51,960 nucleotides of DNA from a phage (PZ000615.1); one strand, 5' to 3'. Positions 368-51,960 are shown, counted from the stretch's first letter. Program-made: numbers and translations. The notes: generated from the letters alone by a model not told the origin.

Positions 368-412
368 AATAGCACTTTTTGTTAAACCAGTTGTCTTGTT
401 GAGTGTTATTAT
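368..412 (+). promoter_or_regulatory. Promoter-like cassette (palindromic element + -10-like hexamer)
   Basis: AATAGCACTTTTTGTTAAA 368-386; TATTAT 407-412, 22 nt after TTGTTA; upstream of helicase. Confidence 0.4.
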
Positions 413-11236: not shown

Positions 11237-11281
11237 AATATAACAAAACCCGCCGGAGCGGGTTTATCAAAAAGTGCTATT
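11237..11281 (-). promoter_or_regulatory. Promoter-like cassette (minus orientation) overlapping terminator hairpin
   Basis: Minus strand AATAGCACTTTTTGATAAA, hairpin CCCGCTCCGGCGGG in spacer, TATATT 22 nt after TTGATA; upstream of small membrane ORF. Confidence 0.35.
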
Positions 11282-14902: not shown

Positions 14903-15445
14903 AAATTTCACGGAGGATTTGGGGAGGATTACGGAGGATTTCTCGGACTCAATTAGACGAACCTTTCAGAGCTACAGCTCATCTTTCTCCATCCCTGACT
15001 TGTCTGATATGCTACGGAGGGTTGCGGAGGATTACGGAGGATTTGCAATTCGGCTCTAGCCCTTGGTGCGCGTGGCTTGCGAGAGATTTACGCCGGAAAA
15101 TGTCGATTTCTCTATGGGGGCTGGTATAGATATACATAGAGAATGATGAGAAAGTGATGTGTCCATACGCTCACAGAAAAAATCCGATAACCCAATAATC
15201 AACATAATCCTCCGTAAACTATGAAACGATACCAATATACCAATAGAGAGATATAGTAATAATATATATAAAAACCCTTATATTACATATATATATAGTA
15301 TTATTATATACTATCTATACTGATTAGCTTGGTCATAAAATGAGCTGATTTTACGGAGGATGGTTCCGGCGCAATCCTCCGCGATTTCGATAAGTGTATG
15401 ATTTGCAAGGCTGCATTTACGGAGGGTATTTTCCGCAAAACACGT
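14903..15445. repeat. Iteron/AT-rich non-coding region A (candidate origin or regulatory hub)
   Basis: Tandem CGGAGGATT-like 10-11-bp repeats at 14911-14940 and 15015-15043, inverted/extra copies at 15206-15214, 15351-15362, 15371-15384, 15415-15428; AT-rich core 15225-15330; blocks shared with region B. Confidence 0.6.
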
Positions 15446-18803: not shown

Positions 18804-18843
18804 CACTTTTTGTTAAACATACCCGCCGTCGTGCGGGTATTAT
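18799..18843 (+). promoter_or_regulatory. Promoter-like cassette
   Basis: AATAGCACTTTTTGTTAAA; hairpin ACCCGCCGTCGTGCGGGT; TATTAT 18838-18843. Confidence 0.4.
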
Positions 18844-22795: not shown

Positions 22796-22835
22796 CACTA
22801 ATTGCTAAAACAATGCCGGAGCAATCCGGCATAAT
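22791..22835 (+). promoter_or_regulatory. Promoter-like cassette
   Basis: AATAGCACTAATTGCTAAA; hairpin CCGGAGCAATCCGG; CATAAT 22830-22835. Confidence 0.4.
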
Positions 22836-24974: not shown

Positions 24975-24983
24975 TGGTATAAT
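24975..24983 (+). promoter_or_regulatory. Extended -10 promoter element (TGgTATAAT) upstream of terminase genes
   Basis: TGGTATAAT immediately after terminator T-tract, ~25 nt upstream of terminase small subunit start; no palindromic element. Confidence 0.35.
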
Positions 24984-30926: not shown

Positions 30927-30954
30927 TTGACCGTTTAACAAAAAGTGCTATTAT
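30927..30954 (+). promoter_or_regulatory. Sigma70-like promoter (TTGACC-N16-TATTAT) with inverted palindromic element in spacer; upstream of capsid gene
   Basis: TTGACC 30927-30932, TATTAT 30949-30954; spacer contains TTTAACAAAAAGTGCTATT, the reverse complement of the early element. Confidence 0.45.
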
Positions 30955-33671: not shown

Positions 33672-34075
33672 TGCATTACGAACTATATGAGGCTAGCGCT
33701 GAGTTTGTGGCGTCAATCATCCAGGATAGTGACAACCTTGTTGCCTGGGAGAATATCTCTTTCACTCCACCTGTAGACGGATCGGAATACTACCGATTCA
33801 ACTACAAAGAGGCTGACACGGTAACGGTATCACTTGATCGCAAGTGTGCTTACTTTGTCGGAATGGTTCAGGTCGATGTTGTGTTTGCGCCTGGCTCCGG
33901 CATTAGTGTAGCAAGAAAGTTAGCCGCCGATGTTGCAAAAAGTGCTGTCGATGGTACAATGCTTGCGACAGGTTATATTTTATCTCGTGGTGAGGTTCAC
34001 CCCGTTCAGAAATCAGACACGGGCTGGTTCATTCCGGTTCGGTTCTATGTTAGATGTGAAACAAAAGGAGCATAA
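33671..34075 (+). CDS. Putative tail terminator/completion protein
   Basis: TAATG coupling; position upstream of major tail gene. Confidence 0.4.
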   Translation: MHYELYEASAEFVASIIQDSDNLVAWENISFTPPVDGSEYYRFNYKEADTVTVSLDRKCAYFVGMVQVDVVFAPGSGISVARKLAADVAKSAVDGTMLATGYILSRGEVHPVQKSDTGWFIPVRFYVRCETKGA

Positions 34076-35499: not shown

Positions 35500-38448
35500 A
35501 TGTCTGAAAATCAAATCGCTGGCTTGAGTATGTCAGTCGACGTCTCCCAGGTGAATGAGGCGACTAAATCACTTGCCAATTTTAAACAGGCCAACAACGA
35601 GACAAAGCGAAGCGTTGAAGATCTGGCGGCGGCTGAGGCAATGGCGCGAGCCAAGGCAAAAGCCCTTAAAGAGGAGCAGGAAAATTTAGCGGCTGAAACA
35701 CTGGCGTTGAAGCGCGGCCTTGACGGTATCGTTAAGTCTATTGATCCCACGGCTGGGAAGATGCAAAAGCTCGCTGAGGCGGCAAAGCAATTAGACCGAG
35801 CCTGGGAGAAAGGGATTGTTCCTGATAAGGAGTTTTTCCGCCTTGGTGAGGTGATTGATAACCAGTCAGCGAAGTTACGCAATGCACAGCTCGCACTGAC
35901 TGAGGAAGGTCGTGCGGCGATTGAAAACTCTAAGGCCAAGCAGCGAGCAACAAGCGCGAGCAAGTCATTCCTTGATAGCTTGAGAGAGCAAGCCGAAACG
36001 ACTGGAATGAGCAAGATCGAGTTGCTCGAATACAAAGCCGCGCAGATGGGCGTAACGGCTCAAGCCGCTCCAATGATTGCAAAGCTTAACCAGCAGAACA
36101 AAGCAATGAACGTTGCAGGGTTGAGCGCCGGACGTTATCGCATGGCAATGCAGCAATTGCCAATGCAGATCACAGATGTGGTGACTTCACTTGCCTCTGG
36201 TATGCCTGTTTGGTTGGTGGCTATTCAGCAGGGCGGTCAAATTAAGGACAGCTTTGGCGGCGTAGGCAATACGTTCAAGTTACTGTTACAGCAGATCACG
36301 CCGTTACGTGTGGCGATGGTTGGACTCGTTGGGGCGATGGCTGGGATTGGGCTGTCAGCATACGACGCATACAAGGCGAACCGTCAGTTCGAAACATCTC
36401 TCATTCTGACTGGTAATTACGCAGCTACGTCAGCGGGTCAGTTATCAGAGTTGACGTCTGAGCTGAACAAGAACAGCCTTTCAACAATCGGATCTCTTGA
36501 TAAGATTGCTGGCACTCTGGCAAGCTCAGGGAAATACACTCTGAACCAGATCAAGGAGATCACGGCAGTAACGGCGGATTGGTCAGAGGTGACTGGAGAG
36601 TCAACAGATAAGATCATTGACTACTTCGACGACATCGCAAAAGATCCGGTTAAAGGTCTGGCGAAACTTAACGAGCAGTTTAACTTTTTGGATAAGGGTC
36701 AACTGACCTATATCTCGAACCTTGAGAAGACCAAAGGGAAAACGGCGGCTGTTACCGAAGCGACGAAACTGTTTGCTGATGTAATGGAAAACCGAATCGC
36801 CAAGATCGCAGACACCGCGACACCTCTTGAAAAGATGTGGACTGACATTAAGAAGTGGTCGGCTGATGCGTGGCGTTGGGTTGGAGATCATACGATTGGC
36901 GCTCTCAACCTGATAACTGACGTTGTGGCTGGTACGATTGAGCAGATCAGATACCTGATTAACTCAGGCGACATGATGATCAGTCAATTCGTGGTTGACA
37001 CTGCGAACGTCATGAGCAAGATTCCAGGAACAAGCAACTTCTTTAAGGGGATCGCAAAAGAACAGCAGCAGTTTGTTGACGATACCAAGCAGAAGAACGC
37101 AGACCTGCTAAAGAGCATTGCTGAGCGTGACGCTCGAATCCGTAAGGGTGAGATGGGGTACATTGAAGCAGCCAAGAAGCGCGGAGAAGCTGACAAGCAG
37201 TACGCCGAAACCACAAAGGACGCGGTACGGAAAGAGGCTGAGCAGTTAGCCAAAAAGAACGCGGTTCGTAAGCAAGGAGTCGCAGACGGAATCAAAGTTT
37301 CGGAACAGTACCAGGCTGAGCTACTTGCTCTTGAAGCTCAACTGAAAGTTTTGCAGGATCACAAGGCGCTTGACGATAAGATTTCACAGCAGCGTAAAAC
37401 ATACTGGAACGATGTCGCCAAATTCCAGATTCTTGAGCAAGCAGCAAAGACCAGAGCACTGACGGCGGATGAGAAATCATTGTTAGCCAACAAGTCAATC
37501 ATCCTTGCATACTCTGAGCAGAAAGCTTTGCTCGGTGATAAGATCGTAGGCCAGGAGAGAATGAACGCCTTACTTGATAAGAGCGCGAAAACAATCCTTG
37601 AGCTGGATCAGAAAATGGCATCAATGGACGCCACTAAAGGCATGGGTGACATGGCTAAGCGCCGAGCTGATGAGATTGCCAAGATGAAAGCCGACTGGGA
37701 GAAAGGCGGGGGAAGTCTTGACGACAAGGCTTATCAGGATATGGAGAAAAAGCAAGTAGAGTATTATGAGCGAGAGGATTCATTGCGCTCTGACTGGTTG
37801 GCTGGCGCTGCGAATGGATTTGCGACTTGGGCGGAGAATGCTGGTAATATGTACGCTCAGACGGGAGCTGTTGCTCAGGCGACTATGTCGGGCATGACGG
37901 ATGAGATCACGAACTTTGTTACAACTGGCAAGGCTGACTTTGCAGACTTCACGGCTAACATCCTCAAGATGATCGCCAAGATGCTTGTCCAAATGGCTTT
38001 GCTTAACGCAATGAAAGCCGCGTTTGGTGGCACTGCTTTTGGTAACATGATGGGGATGTCATCTCATGCAAACGGCGGCGTTGTTGGTAACGGGTTCGCT
38101 CGTGGCGGTTATACCGGAAACGGCGGTAAGTATGAACCAGCCGGAATTGTTCACCGTGGTGAGTTCGTTTTCACCAAGGAGGCAACAAAAAGGATTGGTG
38201 TCGCAAACCTTCACAGAATGATGCGTGGTTACGCGAGCGGCGGAGTTGTTGGTGGCTCATCCTCTGGCGGTGGCTCTGGCGGCGGTGGTGTTGTGATCGG
38301 AGTTGGCGATATCAATATCAACGGGATGGGTGGAGTCGACCAGTCAGCAGCGAAAGGAATGGAACAGGGTGTTCGTCAGGTCGTCATGGATGTGCTTAAC
38401 AGAGAGTGCAGCCAGGGCGGTAGAATTTACCAGCTTGTGAGGGGCTAA
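35500..38448 (+). CDS. Tail tape measure protein
   Basis: ATG 35500 after GGAGG; ~980 aa, helical N-terminal two-thirds, Gly-rich C-terminal region, position after G/T. Confidence 0.8.
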   Translation: MSENQIAGLSMSVDVSQVNEATKSLANFKQANNETKRSVEDLAAAEAMARAKAKALKEEQENLAAETLALKRGLDGIVKSIDPTAGKMQKLAEAAKQLDRAWEKGIVPDKEFFRLGEVIDNQSAKLRNAQLALTEEGRAAIENSKAKQRATSASKSFLDSLREQAETTGMSKIELLEYKAAQMGVTAQAAPMIAKLNQQNKAMNVAGLSAGRYRMAMQQLPMQITDVVTSLASGMPVWLVAIQQGGQIKDSFGGVGNTFKLLLQQITPLRVAMVGLVGAMAGIGLSAYDAYKANRQFETSLILTGNYAATSAGQLSELTSELNKNSLSTIGSLDKIAGTLASSGKYTLNQIKEITAVTADWSEVTGESTDKIIDYFDDIAKDPVKGLAKLNEQFNFLDKGQLTYISNLEKTKGKTAAVTEATKLFADVMENRIAKIADTATPLEKMWTDIKKWSADAWRWVGDHTIGALNLITDVVAGTIEQIRYLINSGDMMISQFVVDTANVMSKIPGTSNFFKGIAKEQQQFVDDTKQKNADLLKSIAERDARIRKGEMGYIEAAKKRGEADKQYAETTKDAVRKEAEQLAKKNAVRKQGVADGIKVSEQYQAELLALEAQLKVLQDHKALDDKISQQRKTYWNDVAKFQILEQAAKTRALTADEKSLLANKSIILAYSEQKALLGDKIVGQERMNALLDKSAKTILELDQKMASMDATKGMGDMAKRRADEIAKMKADWEKGGGSLDDKAYQDMEKKQVEYYEREDSLRSDWLAGAANGFATWAENAGNMYAQTGAVAQATMSGMTDEITNFVTTGKADFADFTANILKMIAKMLVQMALLNAMKAAFGGTAFGNMMGMSSHANGGVVGNGFARGGYTGNGGKYEPAGIVHRGEFVFTKEATKRIGVANLHRMMRGYASGGVVGGSSSGGGSGGGGVVIGVGDININGMGGVDQSAAKGMEQGVRQVVMDVLNRECSQGGRIYQLVRG

Positions 38449-45297: not shown

Positions 45298-45963
45298 ATG
45301 GCTGATTATGGTGTTTTACTATCAACAACAAGCGGCGGAGTGTGGGTTACTCCAGAAAGCACACCCATAGCATTACAGGCGAAGAAAACCGCCAATTTAC
45401 AGGCAACTTCAGGATTTAACGTAAAAATATCCCACACCTTTCCAGCGGGGAAACCAGTAATACCTTTCGTTCATGTTACTGCTGAGTGCGAGATAACTTC
45501 ATCAATAAGTGGCAATGTTATAACAATTGATTTCCTTAGACCTACAGCAAATGGTGTTGCTGAGGTTTACTTCTTTAGTATATTCCCCCAAACCAAACCT
45601 CAATACGGTTTAGCTGTTTGGGATGCGGCTGGTGTTTTGGTTCTAACAAATGAAACCAAAACGCTTACAGACGTTGAGCGGATTGGCGCGCCAGGATCGG
45701 AAAGTTCAGGTTACAACATAAATGTGACAAGATCCGGAAAGTGGGCTTGCATACCTGGAATGCTTGGATTGATAACAGGAGTAATATCAACTGGTATGCC
45801 AAGGCCTTACCAGGCAATATACAAAACAATAGCCTTAAGGGAGGGGGCTAACACAAGGATAAAAGCGAGACCCCAATCAGCCCCAGGAGGTCCGATCCAA
45901 AACGTCATGTACAGCAACATGAGAAATTCCATAATGGCAATAAATGTTGCTAACTATGATTAA
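45298..45963 (+). CDS. Hypothetical protein (paralogue of previous gene)
   Basis: Starts MADYGV; low-GC; followed by terminator. Confidence 0.45.
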   Translation: MADYGVLLSTTSGGVWVTPESTPIALQAKKTANLQATSGFNVKISHTFPAGKPVIPFVHVTAECEITSSISGNVITIDFLRPTANGVAEVYFFSIFPQTKPQYGLAVWDAAGVLVLTNETKTLTDVERIGAPGSESSGYNINVTRSGKWACIPGMLGLITGVISTGMPRPYQAIYKTIALREGANTRIKARPQSAPGGPIQNVMYSNMRNSIMAINVANYD

Positions 45964-45985
45964 GCGCCTGCGGGCGCTTTTTTTG
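45964..45985 (+). terminator. Rho-independent terminator
   Basis: GCGCC-TGC-GGGCGC followed by T7. Confidence 0.55.
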
Positions 45986-46010
45986 TTTCTTACTCAATGG
46001 TACAATAGCG

Positions 46011-46029
46011 TTTAGCAAAAAGTGCTATT
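46011..46029 (+). promoter_or_regulatory. Inverted copy of palindromic element upstream of tail fibre gene
   Basis: TTTAGCAAAAAGTGCTATT (reverse complement of AATAGCACTTTTTGCTAAA) embedded in larger inverted repeat AATAGCG...GCTATT; between terminator 45964-45985 and tail fibre start. Confidence 0.3.
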
Positions 46030-46049
46030 CATAACATGAGGGCTTGACA

Positions 46050-48029
46050 ATGGCAATTTATAGAAAAGGTGAGGCATCACTCGCGGCAGACGGTACTGTT
46101 ACCGGATACGGTACGAACTGGAAAGATCAGCTTGCTCTGGTTCGAATCGGCGCGACCGTCGTATTCCTGACTGGTAACGCAATTAGCGCTATCGGGACGG
46201 TATCGGCTATCGTGTCTGAAACTCAACTTCAAACCATTCAGACTGACGGCGCTGTCGTTGCCCGTGGTAAGTATTTCATCCTACTGCATGACTCGCTGAC
46301 GGTTGACGGCCTGGCGCAAAACGTTGCTGAGACACTCCGTTATTATCAGTCACAAGAAACTGAGATTGCTGACGCGGTTGATTATTTCAGAACTTTCGAC
46401 TGGGAGAAGTTTGAGAAGATCGCGACATCGGTTAAGACCAGCGCGGCGGCTGCTAAGGTTTCAGAAACCAACGCCAAAACATCAGAGACGAACGCCAAGG
46501 CTAGCGAGAATGCGTCACTGCAAAGCAAGAACTCGGCGGCAGGTTCAGCTACGGCAGCAAAAACCAGTGAGACTAACGCAAAGACGTCTGAGACTCGCTC
46601 AAAGACTTCAGAGACTAACTCTGCTGCATCGGCTGTAACGGCAACCAACGAGGCAGACCGAGCCAAGCGTGAAGCTGATCGCGCTGCGGCGGCTAACCCT
46701 GACAACGCGTTACTGAAAGCGAATAACCTGAGTGACGTTCCGGATAAGGCGGCTGCAAGGGCTAACCTTCAAATCGATAGATTTAACCAAGACTCAACAA
46801 CTGAGACAAGGATTCTGTCTGGTGATAAGTCTCAGGCTATGATTGTGTCAACTGGTTCCACGTGGGGAGTGTACAGGTTTGGATCTGGTTGGGTTCCTCT
46901 AGAGATTGCTCAGGGCGGAACCGGAGCAAGCAATGCAGAAGGGGCAAGGAAGAGCTTGCAGTTAAGTGGTGATGACTACGTCAACTTTAATGGATTATCT
47001 TTGAAAAACCAGTTAACGATGAGTAGCAACGGGCAGCCAATTTCACCAACGCTGCTTACAAGGGTGTTTGATGCAAGTGGAAGCAACCTTCTCGGTTCTG
47101 CTGAATTGAGAGCTAACTCAAATGGTAACGTAGAACTCGTTAATAGGATTTCTGGATCGCCAAGGGCGCTGGCGCTATTCCCTGATGGTTCTGTTGCTTT
47201 TTCATCGTTTAATGGCAGATTCATAAGTCAAGGCATGGGTCTTGGGGTCGGTCGAGATATTTCTACTGGTTACGTACTCAATGCAATGAAGGATGTCATC
47301 AACAACGGAGAAACTCAGGCGTTCAGGGTTACTGGGACTGGTGGCATGGTTATTGGTGGAGTTAACTTCCAATATGCACCTTCAATGTCATTCCATTCTG
47401 GAGATGTAGTAGGGGCTTTGTGGGTTGACTACAGGACTGGTAACGCAATGACTGTTTCCGGAACAAGGTCATCTATACTTGGTAACACGACTCCAAATCA
47501 GAACGTGTTATGGGGTACTGCTAACACAACTGTTGACGCTAACGGATTTTTGAAAAGGGCATCACCAATAGTCAAGATTATGAGTAATTCATTTGAGACT
47601 AATGAAGAGTCCGAGGGCGTTTTAGTAACAAGGGTTGGAGTTGGTGAATATCTTGTTTCGGGATGTCTTGGGCTTCATTCAGATCTTGCGTGGGGTGGCG
47701 TAGATGGAGGATTTGAAGTTCCAAAAGACAGGAATGGACAGAACAAGATATGGGTTGACTATGACATGAAAGAGGATGGTTCAATTCTGGTTAAAACCTA
47801 CCACAGGGAGTATAAAGACGTTCCTGAGTTCGCCAAAAACAAGAAGGATGGTTTTGAGGATGGTCAGCCTATTGATATCCCATATGACTCATTCTTAAGC
47901 ATTCGAGTTGAAATGCCGGAGGACAGCGCATACAACAAGAGAATTAGGGAGGCCGAATCAGATGTAAGAAGCAACGCAAACAGGGAATGGTGGAGTAAAA
48001 TACACGAAACTGGTTGCGAGGAGGAATAA
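46050..48029 (+). CDS. Tail fibre protein
   Basis: ATG 46050; N-terminal repeated KTSETNAK / Ala-Ser-Thr-rich collar motif typical of phage tail fibres; divergent C-terminal domain. Confidence 0.7.
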
Positions 48030-48059
48030 AAAAAGGAGCCGTAAGGCTCCTTTTCTTTT
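48027..48059. terminator. Bidirectional terminator between convergent tail fibre and ssb genes
   Basis: A-run, GGAGCC-GTAA-GGCTCC, T-run; same stem sequence as terminator at 8382. Confidence 0.6.
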
Positions 48060-51854: not shown

Positions 51855-51900
51855 GGCGCGATCATAATAACCGCGCCCGTGTGGGATTGTTTAGCTTTTA
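51855..51900 (-). promoter_or_regulatory. Promoter-like cassette (minus orientation, variant) upstream of primase
   Basis: Minus strand AATAAGCACTAAAAGCTAAA; hairpin GGGCGCGG...CGCGCCC in spacer; TATTAT; GGAGA SD. Confidence 0.35.
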
Positions 51901-51960
51901 GTGCTTATTTTACTACTCGGAGCATTTCTCGACGGTCACAGCGAGTGGTTAGAGCCTTGC

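Follow-up and report, generated by a model that had tools for sequence, protein, structure and literature searches.

How does a gene that begins directly behind a transcription terminator obtain its transcripts, and what does a repeated sequence element lying between the two contribute to its control? T1-like phages are common, are found in therapy collections and are notorious as laboratory contaminants, and annotation efforts have turned up no more than a handful of sigma-70 promoters in them; one paper doubted that a tail spike gene located behind a terminator receives any transcription. The window, by which we mean the whole stretch of 51,960 nt analysed here, is a complete genome of a T1-like siphophage (Drexlerviridae). 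It is circularly permuted, the ORF of a 136-aa Cro-like regulator running unbroken over its two ends, and its tail fibre region is ~88–91% identical to that of the Enterobacter phages Ec_L1 and Phc of the genus Eclunavirus. A literature search for start-site mapping or transcriptome data on Drexlerviridae found none. For the tail fibre gene, the answer that we offer combines a predicted extended −10 promoter of its own, insulation by terminators and a family-wide repeat sitting on the inferred start site. The features of the locus are the following.

45298–45963, plus strand: 221-aa ORF at the end of the tail block (ORF list; annotated in Ec_L1 as 'membrane associated protein')
45962–45989, plus strand: intrinsic terminator from a terminator scan, with stem AAGCGCC/GGCGCTT (7 pairs, 5 of them G-C), loop TGCG and then TTTTTGTTTC
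45998–46006, plus strand: predicted extended −10 promoter TGgTACAAT, read from the sequence (TG at 45998–45999, hexamer TACAAT at 46001–46006)
46004–46009, plus strand: AATAGC, left arm of a larger palindrome from an inverted-repeat scan, incidental and overlapping the last 3 nt of the −10 hexamer
46012–46029, no strand assigned: 18-mer repeat motif TTAGCAAAAAGTGCTATT, proposed operator, recognized by copy number, PWM score and the same motif in T1, TLS and Roth24
46013, plus strand: transcription start as predicted from sigma-70 geometry, 7 nt past the −10 hexamer
46038–46042, plus strand: RBS GAGGG, 7 nt before the ATG, with a purine-rich RBS at the equivalent place in relatives
46050–48029, plus strand: tail fibre gene, 659 aa from the ATG (ORF list; annotated tail fibre in Ec_L1, Phc and T1-like phages)
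48031–48054, no strand assigned: terminator hairpin closing the tail fibre unit and common to the convergent ssb gene (10 pairs, then CTTTTGCTTA)

An earlier note on this DNA had suggested that a palindrome in the gap could uncouple the tail fibre gene from the tail operon. The uncoupling itself is borne out, with a strong terminator before the gene and another (48031–48054) after it, but the palindrome is not its cause; it is due to the terminators together with a predicted promoter of the gene's own. The upstream 221-aa ORF, for which no match was found in Pfam, has its stop codon at 45961–45963 and leaves an intergenic gap of 86 nt between 45963 and 46050, in which the terminator stem occupies 45962–45979 and its T-run extends up to 45989. 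T1 also has a terminator at the equivalent place upstream of its fibre gene, according to its annotation and to sequence comparison. Since terminators stand on both sides, the tail fibre gene would constitute a single-gene transcription unit, self-promoted insofar as the predicted promoter activity holds. As its start codon we take the ATG at 46050, which is kept across relatives while the sequence upstream diverges; the TTG at 46044 given in the ORF list was rejected as a mechanical call. The terminator at 45962–45989 ends the tail operon, and TGgTACAAT would restart transcription at ~46013.

The same note stated that no clear −35/−10 pair is visible in the gap. This is literally true, as a scan of the gap finds none, but it passed over the extended −10 element at 45998–46006, a type of promoter that a −35/−10 scan cannot detect. 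Extended −10 (TGn) sigma-70 promoters need no −35, and TGgTACAAT is no different from them in sequence terms: TG lies at −15/−14 and 5/6 hexamer positions match TATAAT, including the A at −11 and the T at −7. The place of a −35 is occupied by the T-run of the terminator. Only 5 matches to TGNTANAAT occur in the 52-kb window, all of them in the late region and on the plus strand. If the hexamer occupies −12 to −7, transcription would start at ~46013 and the motif would lie over ~−1 to +17, its 17-bp pseudo-dyad TTAGCAA-AAA-GTGCTAT (46012–46028) being centred at ~+8; in relatives the motif spans +1 to +17 or +6 to +22 with respect to the inferred start. Other placements of a promoter were rejected. 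Pairs of −35 and −10 elements in or across the motif (TTTAGC...TAACAT, or TGcTATTCA taken as −10) have spacings of 9–15 nt or lack the T at −7, and a start there would moreover fall inside the RBS.

The promoter comparison covered 69 distinct upstream sequences of relatives. The motif is found at the tail fibre position in 27 of the 69, and all 27 have TGnTAnnnT ending 5, 6 or 11 nt before it. In the window the extended −10 lies 5 nt upstream of the motif, and with its position kept in 27/27 motif-bearing relatives the proposal of a pure operator without a promoter cannot be upheld. Among the 42 distinct relatives without the motif, 32 have an extended −10, TGcTATTAT, ~43–46 nt before the ATG, which brings the distinct relatives with an extended −10 before the tail fibre gene to 59/69; the 10 remaining motif-less ones include TLS-like sequences with TTGCAT-17-CATAAT. 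Because ~60% of the distinct relatives sampled (42/69) have a tail fibre promoter without the motif, the operator would be dispensable. The promoter of the T1 tail fibre gene additionally has TTGCAA at 17-nt spacing. An annotated T1 reading frame of 47 aa, ORF 25 (CPTT1_054; L002 1503–1646), starts inside this promoter (acaATGataaaat); it is probably not a gene, because in the window a frame opened at the equivalent ATG (45997) closes after three codons.

At the nucleotide level the window resembles T1-like phages from 45995 onwards, a point at the promoter, and in T1 the tail fibre gene sits after the primase gene on the other strand. The similarity from 45995 despite this different gene position indicates that the promoter-operator cassette travels with the gene. 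That the cassette stays with a receptor-binding gene on relocation, as seen between T1 and the window phage, matters for host-range engineering by tail fibre swaps.

The sequence in the gap is present as described earlier, AATAGCGTTTAGCAAAAAGTGCTATT at 46004–46029, and it was correctly recognized as the reverse complement of a repeated element: the pattern TTAGCAAnnnGTGCTATT is found 20 times in the window at ≤2 mismatches, where 0.10 would be expected and no shuffle reached 20, and the same pattern gives 20 copies in T1 (0.14 expected). With GTTTAGCAAAAAGTGC, 15 window matches are obtained at ≤3 mismatches against 0.54 expected. The same motif also occurs in TLS, and the Klebsiella phage Roth24 has 16 copies at ≤3 mismatches with the same −10 geometry. 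PWM scores are bimodal, with 20 strong copies at 25–35 and a best shuffle of 16, and the tail fibre copy (32.5) is among the higher ones. The reverse complement of 46012–46029 is AATAGCACTTTTTGCTAA, then AC, and agrees with the consensus derived from the window itself at all 15 specified positions, and that of 46009–46029 is AATAGCACTTTTTGCTAAACG, to be compared with the published TLS consensus aaATAGCACnnnTTGnTAAAA.

This consensus comes from the 2024 re-annotation of TLS, which describes a 21-nt direct repeat (DR1–DR18) in 21 places, sees the same repeat in T1, Rtp and vB_EcoS_Rogue1, and suggests that it serves as stoperators, enhancer sites or UP elements (PMC11447400). There the copies point with transcription and lie ~76 nt before start codons, and reverse-strand copies in the late region, such as DR7, are listed too (PMC11447400). 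As cited in that work, a 2004 paper noted the repeat first, in T1 (PMC11447400). The TLS repeat and the window motif have the same sequence and are likewise multi-copy and intergenic. The tail fibre copy departs from the TLS description in being reversed and in stopping 20 nt short of the ATG, not ~76. It is a sequence member of the published repeat family in an atypical placement, like the copy at the capsid promoter. The motif as such is already published; its 21-nt spacing to a −10, its dyad and its overlap with the cores of late promoters are unreported in the TLS paper.

The motif profile is a 17-bp pseudo-dyad, TTAGCAA-www-GTGCTAT, with wTAGCAm in each half. The half-sites TTAGCAA and ATAGCAC agree at 5/7 positions, the dyad symmetry being imperfect. 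The G/C-containing TAGCAC and TTGCTAA make up the invariant positions, and variation falls in the A/T centre (TTT, GAA, TAA). Flanks and centre are asymmetric and the orientation is conserved, an asymmetry that a simple symmetric dimer leaves unexplained. Rich in information, multi-copy and constant from genus to genus, the motif is built like a protein-binding site and would be that of a sequence-specific, probably dimeric, DNA-binding protein.

The larger inverted repeat, AATAGC (46004–46009) and GCTATT (46024–46029), does exist, as had been claimed, but it is incidental, being no more than expected by chance and unconserved. Its right arm GCTATT belongs to the conserved motif. The left arm shares AAT with the −10 hexamer and competes for the same bases with the inner dyad TAGCA/TGCTA; Phc and L007, both close relatives, read AATGGC there, T1 lacks the arm altogether, and AATAGC occurs ≤25 nt upstream at 3/20 motif copies. 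We therefore rejected the larger palindrome, neither conserved nor special, as a functional unit; the conserved unit is the inner element.

Could the element act as RNA instead, a 5′ hairpin of the tail fibre mRNA that stabilises the message or controls access to the RBS, in the form UAGCA-AAAAG-UGCUA or, in read-through RNA, as the longer AAUAGC/GCUAUU? A start at ~46013 would put the stem at the extreme 5′ end of the message, finishing 10 nt before the RBS, and likewise in T1. The hairpins are nevertheless weak (−5 kcal/mol or less) and no better than shuffles (z = −1.6, +0.3 and 0.0, the first value being that of the larger-palindrome hairpin at −5 kcal/mol). TTAACA, a frequent variant of the motif, puts an A-C mismatch into the stem that nothing compensates, and nine distinct relatives carry it in the tail fibre leader. 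The motif copy of the capsid promoter precedes the start and is untranscribed from that promoter, and an Rfam search gave no match apart from the terminator hairpin at E = 0.15. Taken together, the weak folds, the uncompensated variant, the untranscribed capsid copy and the lack of an Rfam match favour a DNA site. On the fold z-scores and the Rfam result we rejected an RNA element as the main reading and hold it to be very improbable.

Regarded as a DNA site, the tail fibre copy is best read against its sister copies. On the strand of the downstream gene, 17/20 window copies and 16/20 T1 copies have a canonical layout consisting of AATAGCACnnnTTGCTAA, 21 nt, a −10 hexamer, a short leader (CATCGAAAC...), an RBS and an ATG. 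The hexamers are TATAGT, TATTAT or CATAAT, with TG at −15/−14 in 15/33 copies; an eighteenth window copy (12818) has a weak hexamer only. Canonical copies serve early, replication and recombination genes. The −10 lies at exactly 21 nt in 30 of the 40 copies of the window and T1, and at 20 or 22 nt in 3 more. An exact-pattern scan of viral contigs mixed chance single matches with Drexlerviridae, and multi-copy contigs were used for the spacing: among the matches listed, 135 of 181 distinct copies from such contigs have the −10 at 21 nt and 26 at 20 or 22 nt, whereas chance single matches gave a flat distribution of −10 distances. The 21-nt spacers vary in sequence between copies, often as GC hairpins, while their length is kept, and this fixed length centres the dyad at ~−42. 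No −35 stands at usable spacing in the canonical copies, TTGCTA being rejected in that role as its 22-nt spacing is too long. Most copies would therefore, by this geometry, occupy a class II activator position, at ~−42 and 21 nt upstream of a −10 without a −35. The fixed geometry turns an unexplained repeat into a specific, checkable hypothesis.

Class II activator sites are known from lambda cI, which at OR2 (centre −42) activates PRM, from CRP and FNR (−41.5) and from Mu Mor and C (−43.5). The 17–18 canonical window copies likewise have the dyad at ~−42, a good −10 and no −35 at proper spacing. Unlike strict class II promoters, ~40% of the canonical ones have a TG extension and might fire unaided. 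This likeness is limited to the sister copies; the tail fibre copy, which is reversed relative to its gene, opposite to the 17–18 promoter-upstream copies of the window, does not share it. We looked for a canonical leftward promoter served by the tail fibre copy and rejected it, as no minus-strand −10 occurs at 20–22 nt in that direction in either the window or T1.

Several minor observations concern the surroundings of these copies. Some 21-nt spacers (e.g. 18817–18843, 22809–22835 and 11243–11263) hold GC-rich hairpins whose 3′ arm abuts the −10 or T-rich hexamer, and at such spacers one gene's terminator appears to share sequence with the following gene's promoter. At 51887–51912 a degenerate motif with a 1-nt insertion (AATAAGCACTAAAAGCTAAAC) stands 21 nt before TATTAT, upstream of the primase gene. 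The left end of T1 has a sense copy ~420 nt before the first gene (L004 104–121; L103), with no −10 in either geometry.

The fixed 21-nt spacing would also fit direct contact with RNA polymerase, and the TLS authors raised the idea of an UP element (PMC11447400). Were the motif an UP-element-like enhancer read by the polymerase itself, the reversed tail fibre copy would be a by-product of little function. UP elements are A/T-rich stretches at −40 to −60 of the promoter they serve; the canonical motif spans ~−51 to −34, in UP-element territory, and its ends and centre are A/T-rich. Its invariant positions, however, contain G/C, and it is the A/T centre that varies. An UP element cannot act from +1 to +17 or from inside a spacer, and the tail fibre copy lies downstream of the sole promoter-like element in the gap; yet both misplaced copies, at the tail fibre and capsid genes, are conserved at full strength, even though the N-terminal 120 aa of the tail fibre are only ~60% identical. 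We regard this enhancer as quite unlikely.

The placement of these two copies, the only non-canonical ones in the window, suggests a different function. The second of them lies at the following site.

30927–30954, plus strand: putative promoter of the major capsid protein gene, TTGACC-16 nt-TATTAT, with the motif at 30935–30952 making up the spacer and the first three −10 bases

Here the motif covers −26 to −10. The same capsid design is found in T1 (TTGACG-16-TATTAT) and in six relatives (L205–L210). A late antitermination site of the lambda Q type was among the readings considered; a terminator follows directly on the capsid promoter in T1, but not in the window. In the promoter of the T1 small-terminase gene, TGgTAAAAT overlaps the start of a motif copy, an arrangement repeated in other contigs among the matches listed. 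Unlike T1, the window has no motif copy at its small-terminase promoter, where an extended −10 (TGGTATAAT, 24975–24983) is seen directly after a terminator and 25 nt before the ATG (25009). Wherever the motif is not at −42 of an early promoter, it thus covers the core or the start site of a late one, whichever way it points, and this is how a repressing operator would look.

At the tail fibre gene, a protein bound to the motif (~−1 to +17) would block RNA polymerase and so would hold down or delay the tail fibre unit. Negative or temporal control of the conserved extended −10 promoter is the likely role of this copy. The fuller proposal, that 46012–46029 is an operator which represses or times a self-promoted tail fibre unit and is bound by a sequence-specific protein, has in our estimate about an even chance of being right. 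The sequences themselves show the motif family with its copy number and fixed spacing, the conserved extended −10 and the terminators; we infer promoter activity, start site, protein binding and direction of regulation, and the binding proteins considered below are candidates.

Operators of this kind have precedents, and those of Cro/CI-type dimeric repressors are dyad-symmetric sites of ~14–18 bp. The lac operator O1 is centred at +11, and the lambda and P22 operators lie over PR and PL. As in these systems, a ~17-bp pseudo-palindrome lies over the start (tail fibre) or the core (capsid) of a promoter, and the genome holds a gene for a Cro-fold protein. Unlike lambda and P22, the phage is virulent, has one motif type in ~20 places and shows a presumed recognition helix that varies while the site is constant.

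The motif might also act without any regulation of the fibre promoter itself, if a bound protein served as a stoperator-type roadblock that stops polymerases leaking through the terminator at 45962–45989 and insulates the tail fibre unit from the tail operon. Motif copies do lie in short intergenic gaps beside terminator hairpins, with an orientation that follows transcription, and the tail fibre copy comes directly after a terminator; the TLS paper drew the analogy with the stoperators of mycobacteriophage L5 (PMC11447400). L5 stoperators are asymmetric, keep one orientation and silence a temperate genome, and the canonical copies follow this orientation rule, but the tail fibre copy breaks it, being oriented opposite to the other copies. 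Nor do stoperators keep a fixed distance to a −10, and a roadblock leaves the exact 21-nt distance (~75% of copies, among the matches listed) unexplained. Besides, a roadblock amounts to repression here, because the motif is downstream of the unit's own promoter and the fibre transcript would be stopped too. A pure roadblock seems to us to have little likelihood, and we return to an operator that represses or times the tail fibre promoter.

Which protein might bind it? The first candidate is the phage's own Cro-like protein, and the second is host Lrp. Two features of the window bear on the former.

1–355 and 51905–51960, minus strand: 136-aa Cro/CI-like helix-turn-helix protein, candidate binder, the ORF being unbroken over the window junction
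368–385, minus strand: motif copy between the divergent Cro-like gene and the helicase promoter, 12 nt before the Cro-like ATG (helicase −10 TATTAT at 407–412)

The Cro-like protein gives a weak match to P22_Cro and a match to phrog_2856, 'transcriptional regulator', at E = 6e-66. Its structural model (pLDDT 88) has all-helical Cro proteins as best fold matches, and the homologues returned by a word-indexed search are all ≥47% identical and come mostly from ~50-kb contigs. The same regulator/helicase arrangement occurs in T1 (36443–36460) and in TLS, where DR11 stands next to P57; the T1 Cro-like gene has a near-consensus promoter (TTGAAT-17-TATAAT) with the motif in the leader. Against this candidate, the presumed recognition helix varies (SHATLYEW, SNQTVQGW, SIQVVQQW), although T1, TLS, Roth24 and the window share an essentially invariant motif, and a variable helix with an invariant site is not usual for a cognate pair of operator and repressor. 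The invariant residues of the protein lie in its basic N-terminal arm and its C-terminal part. Two other 'HTH-like' proteins of T1 and their window homologues were rejected as binders, having no Pfam domain and nothing that links them to the motif.

C proteins of restriction-modification systems activate at low and repress at high occupancy, with delayed expression as a result. They are small helix-turn-helix proteins like our candidate, whose weak fold matches include C.BclI and C.Esp1396I (E ~0.7–0.9 for its model). C-boxes are paired sites at one promoter, whereas the motif occurs as single sites across the genome.

If the binder were a strongly conserved host protein, the constancy of the motif across phages of Escherichia, Klebsiella and Enterobacter would be explained in spite of the varying phage helix-turn-helix. 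If host Lrp rather than a phage protein bound the motif, it could activate early promoters, since it is already present at infection; it would act on ~17 of them from −42 and sit on the capsid and tail fibre promoters until titrated by replicated phage genomes. Two facts count against it: cells contain little Lrp in rich medium, in which T1 grows fast, and the classical mutations to T1 resistance lie in fhuA and tonB and not in lrp. The motif core TAGCA-N5-TGCTA (46013–46027) matches the E. coli Lrp consensus yAGhAwATTwTdCTr, as quoted in PMC5554404, at 12/15 positions on one strand and 13/15 on the other, with the TAG/CTA ends at the same spacing in both; by chance a 15-mer would reach ≥12 with a probability of 6e-4 and ≥13 with one of 7e-5. 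This match is a lead and not a test, because it emerged after many consensus sequences had been tried, and ~40 other 15-mers of the window also score ≥12. Natural Lrp sites are degenerate and usually clustered, but the motif sites are single and near-identical. We consider binding by Lrp unlikely, though it keeps its place as second candidate behind the Cro-like protein. The T4 MotA box and the IHF, Fis and CRP consensus sequences gave no convincing match or the wrong spacing and were rejected.

A protein that activates early and represses late would require that the late promoters be released, and titration by replicating genomes, a speculation, could provide that release. Carried further, one invariant 17-bp site in two geometries could run the timing of this whole virulent phage family, an extension that we put forward tentatively and hold to be doubtful. 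If true, the site at ~−42 would switch on ~17 early and replication promoters without a −35, and where it overlies the core of a late promoter (capsid, tail fibre and, in T1, small terminase) it would keep that promoter inactive; the ~20 sites per genome would be multiplied by replication, titrate the binder and release the late promoters. The binder might then be a pre-existing host protein such as Lrp, through which the phage would read the physiological state of its host.

Two further stretches of the window deserve mention. At 33928–33960, ATGTTGCAAAAAGTGCTGTC weakly resembles the motif, with a PWM score of 10.8 that is within the null range, and runs directly into TGGTACAAT; the stretch is inside coding sequence, ~120 nt before the presumed major tail gene, and could be an internal promoter. 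Between the two divergent early arms, positions 15230–15330 are very AT-rich with alternating AT runs, a composition that could be related to replication or packaging.
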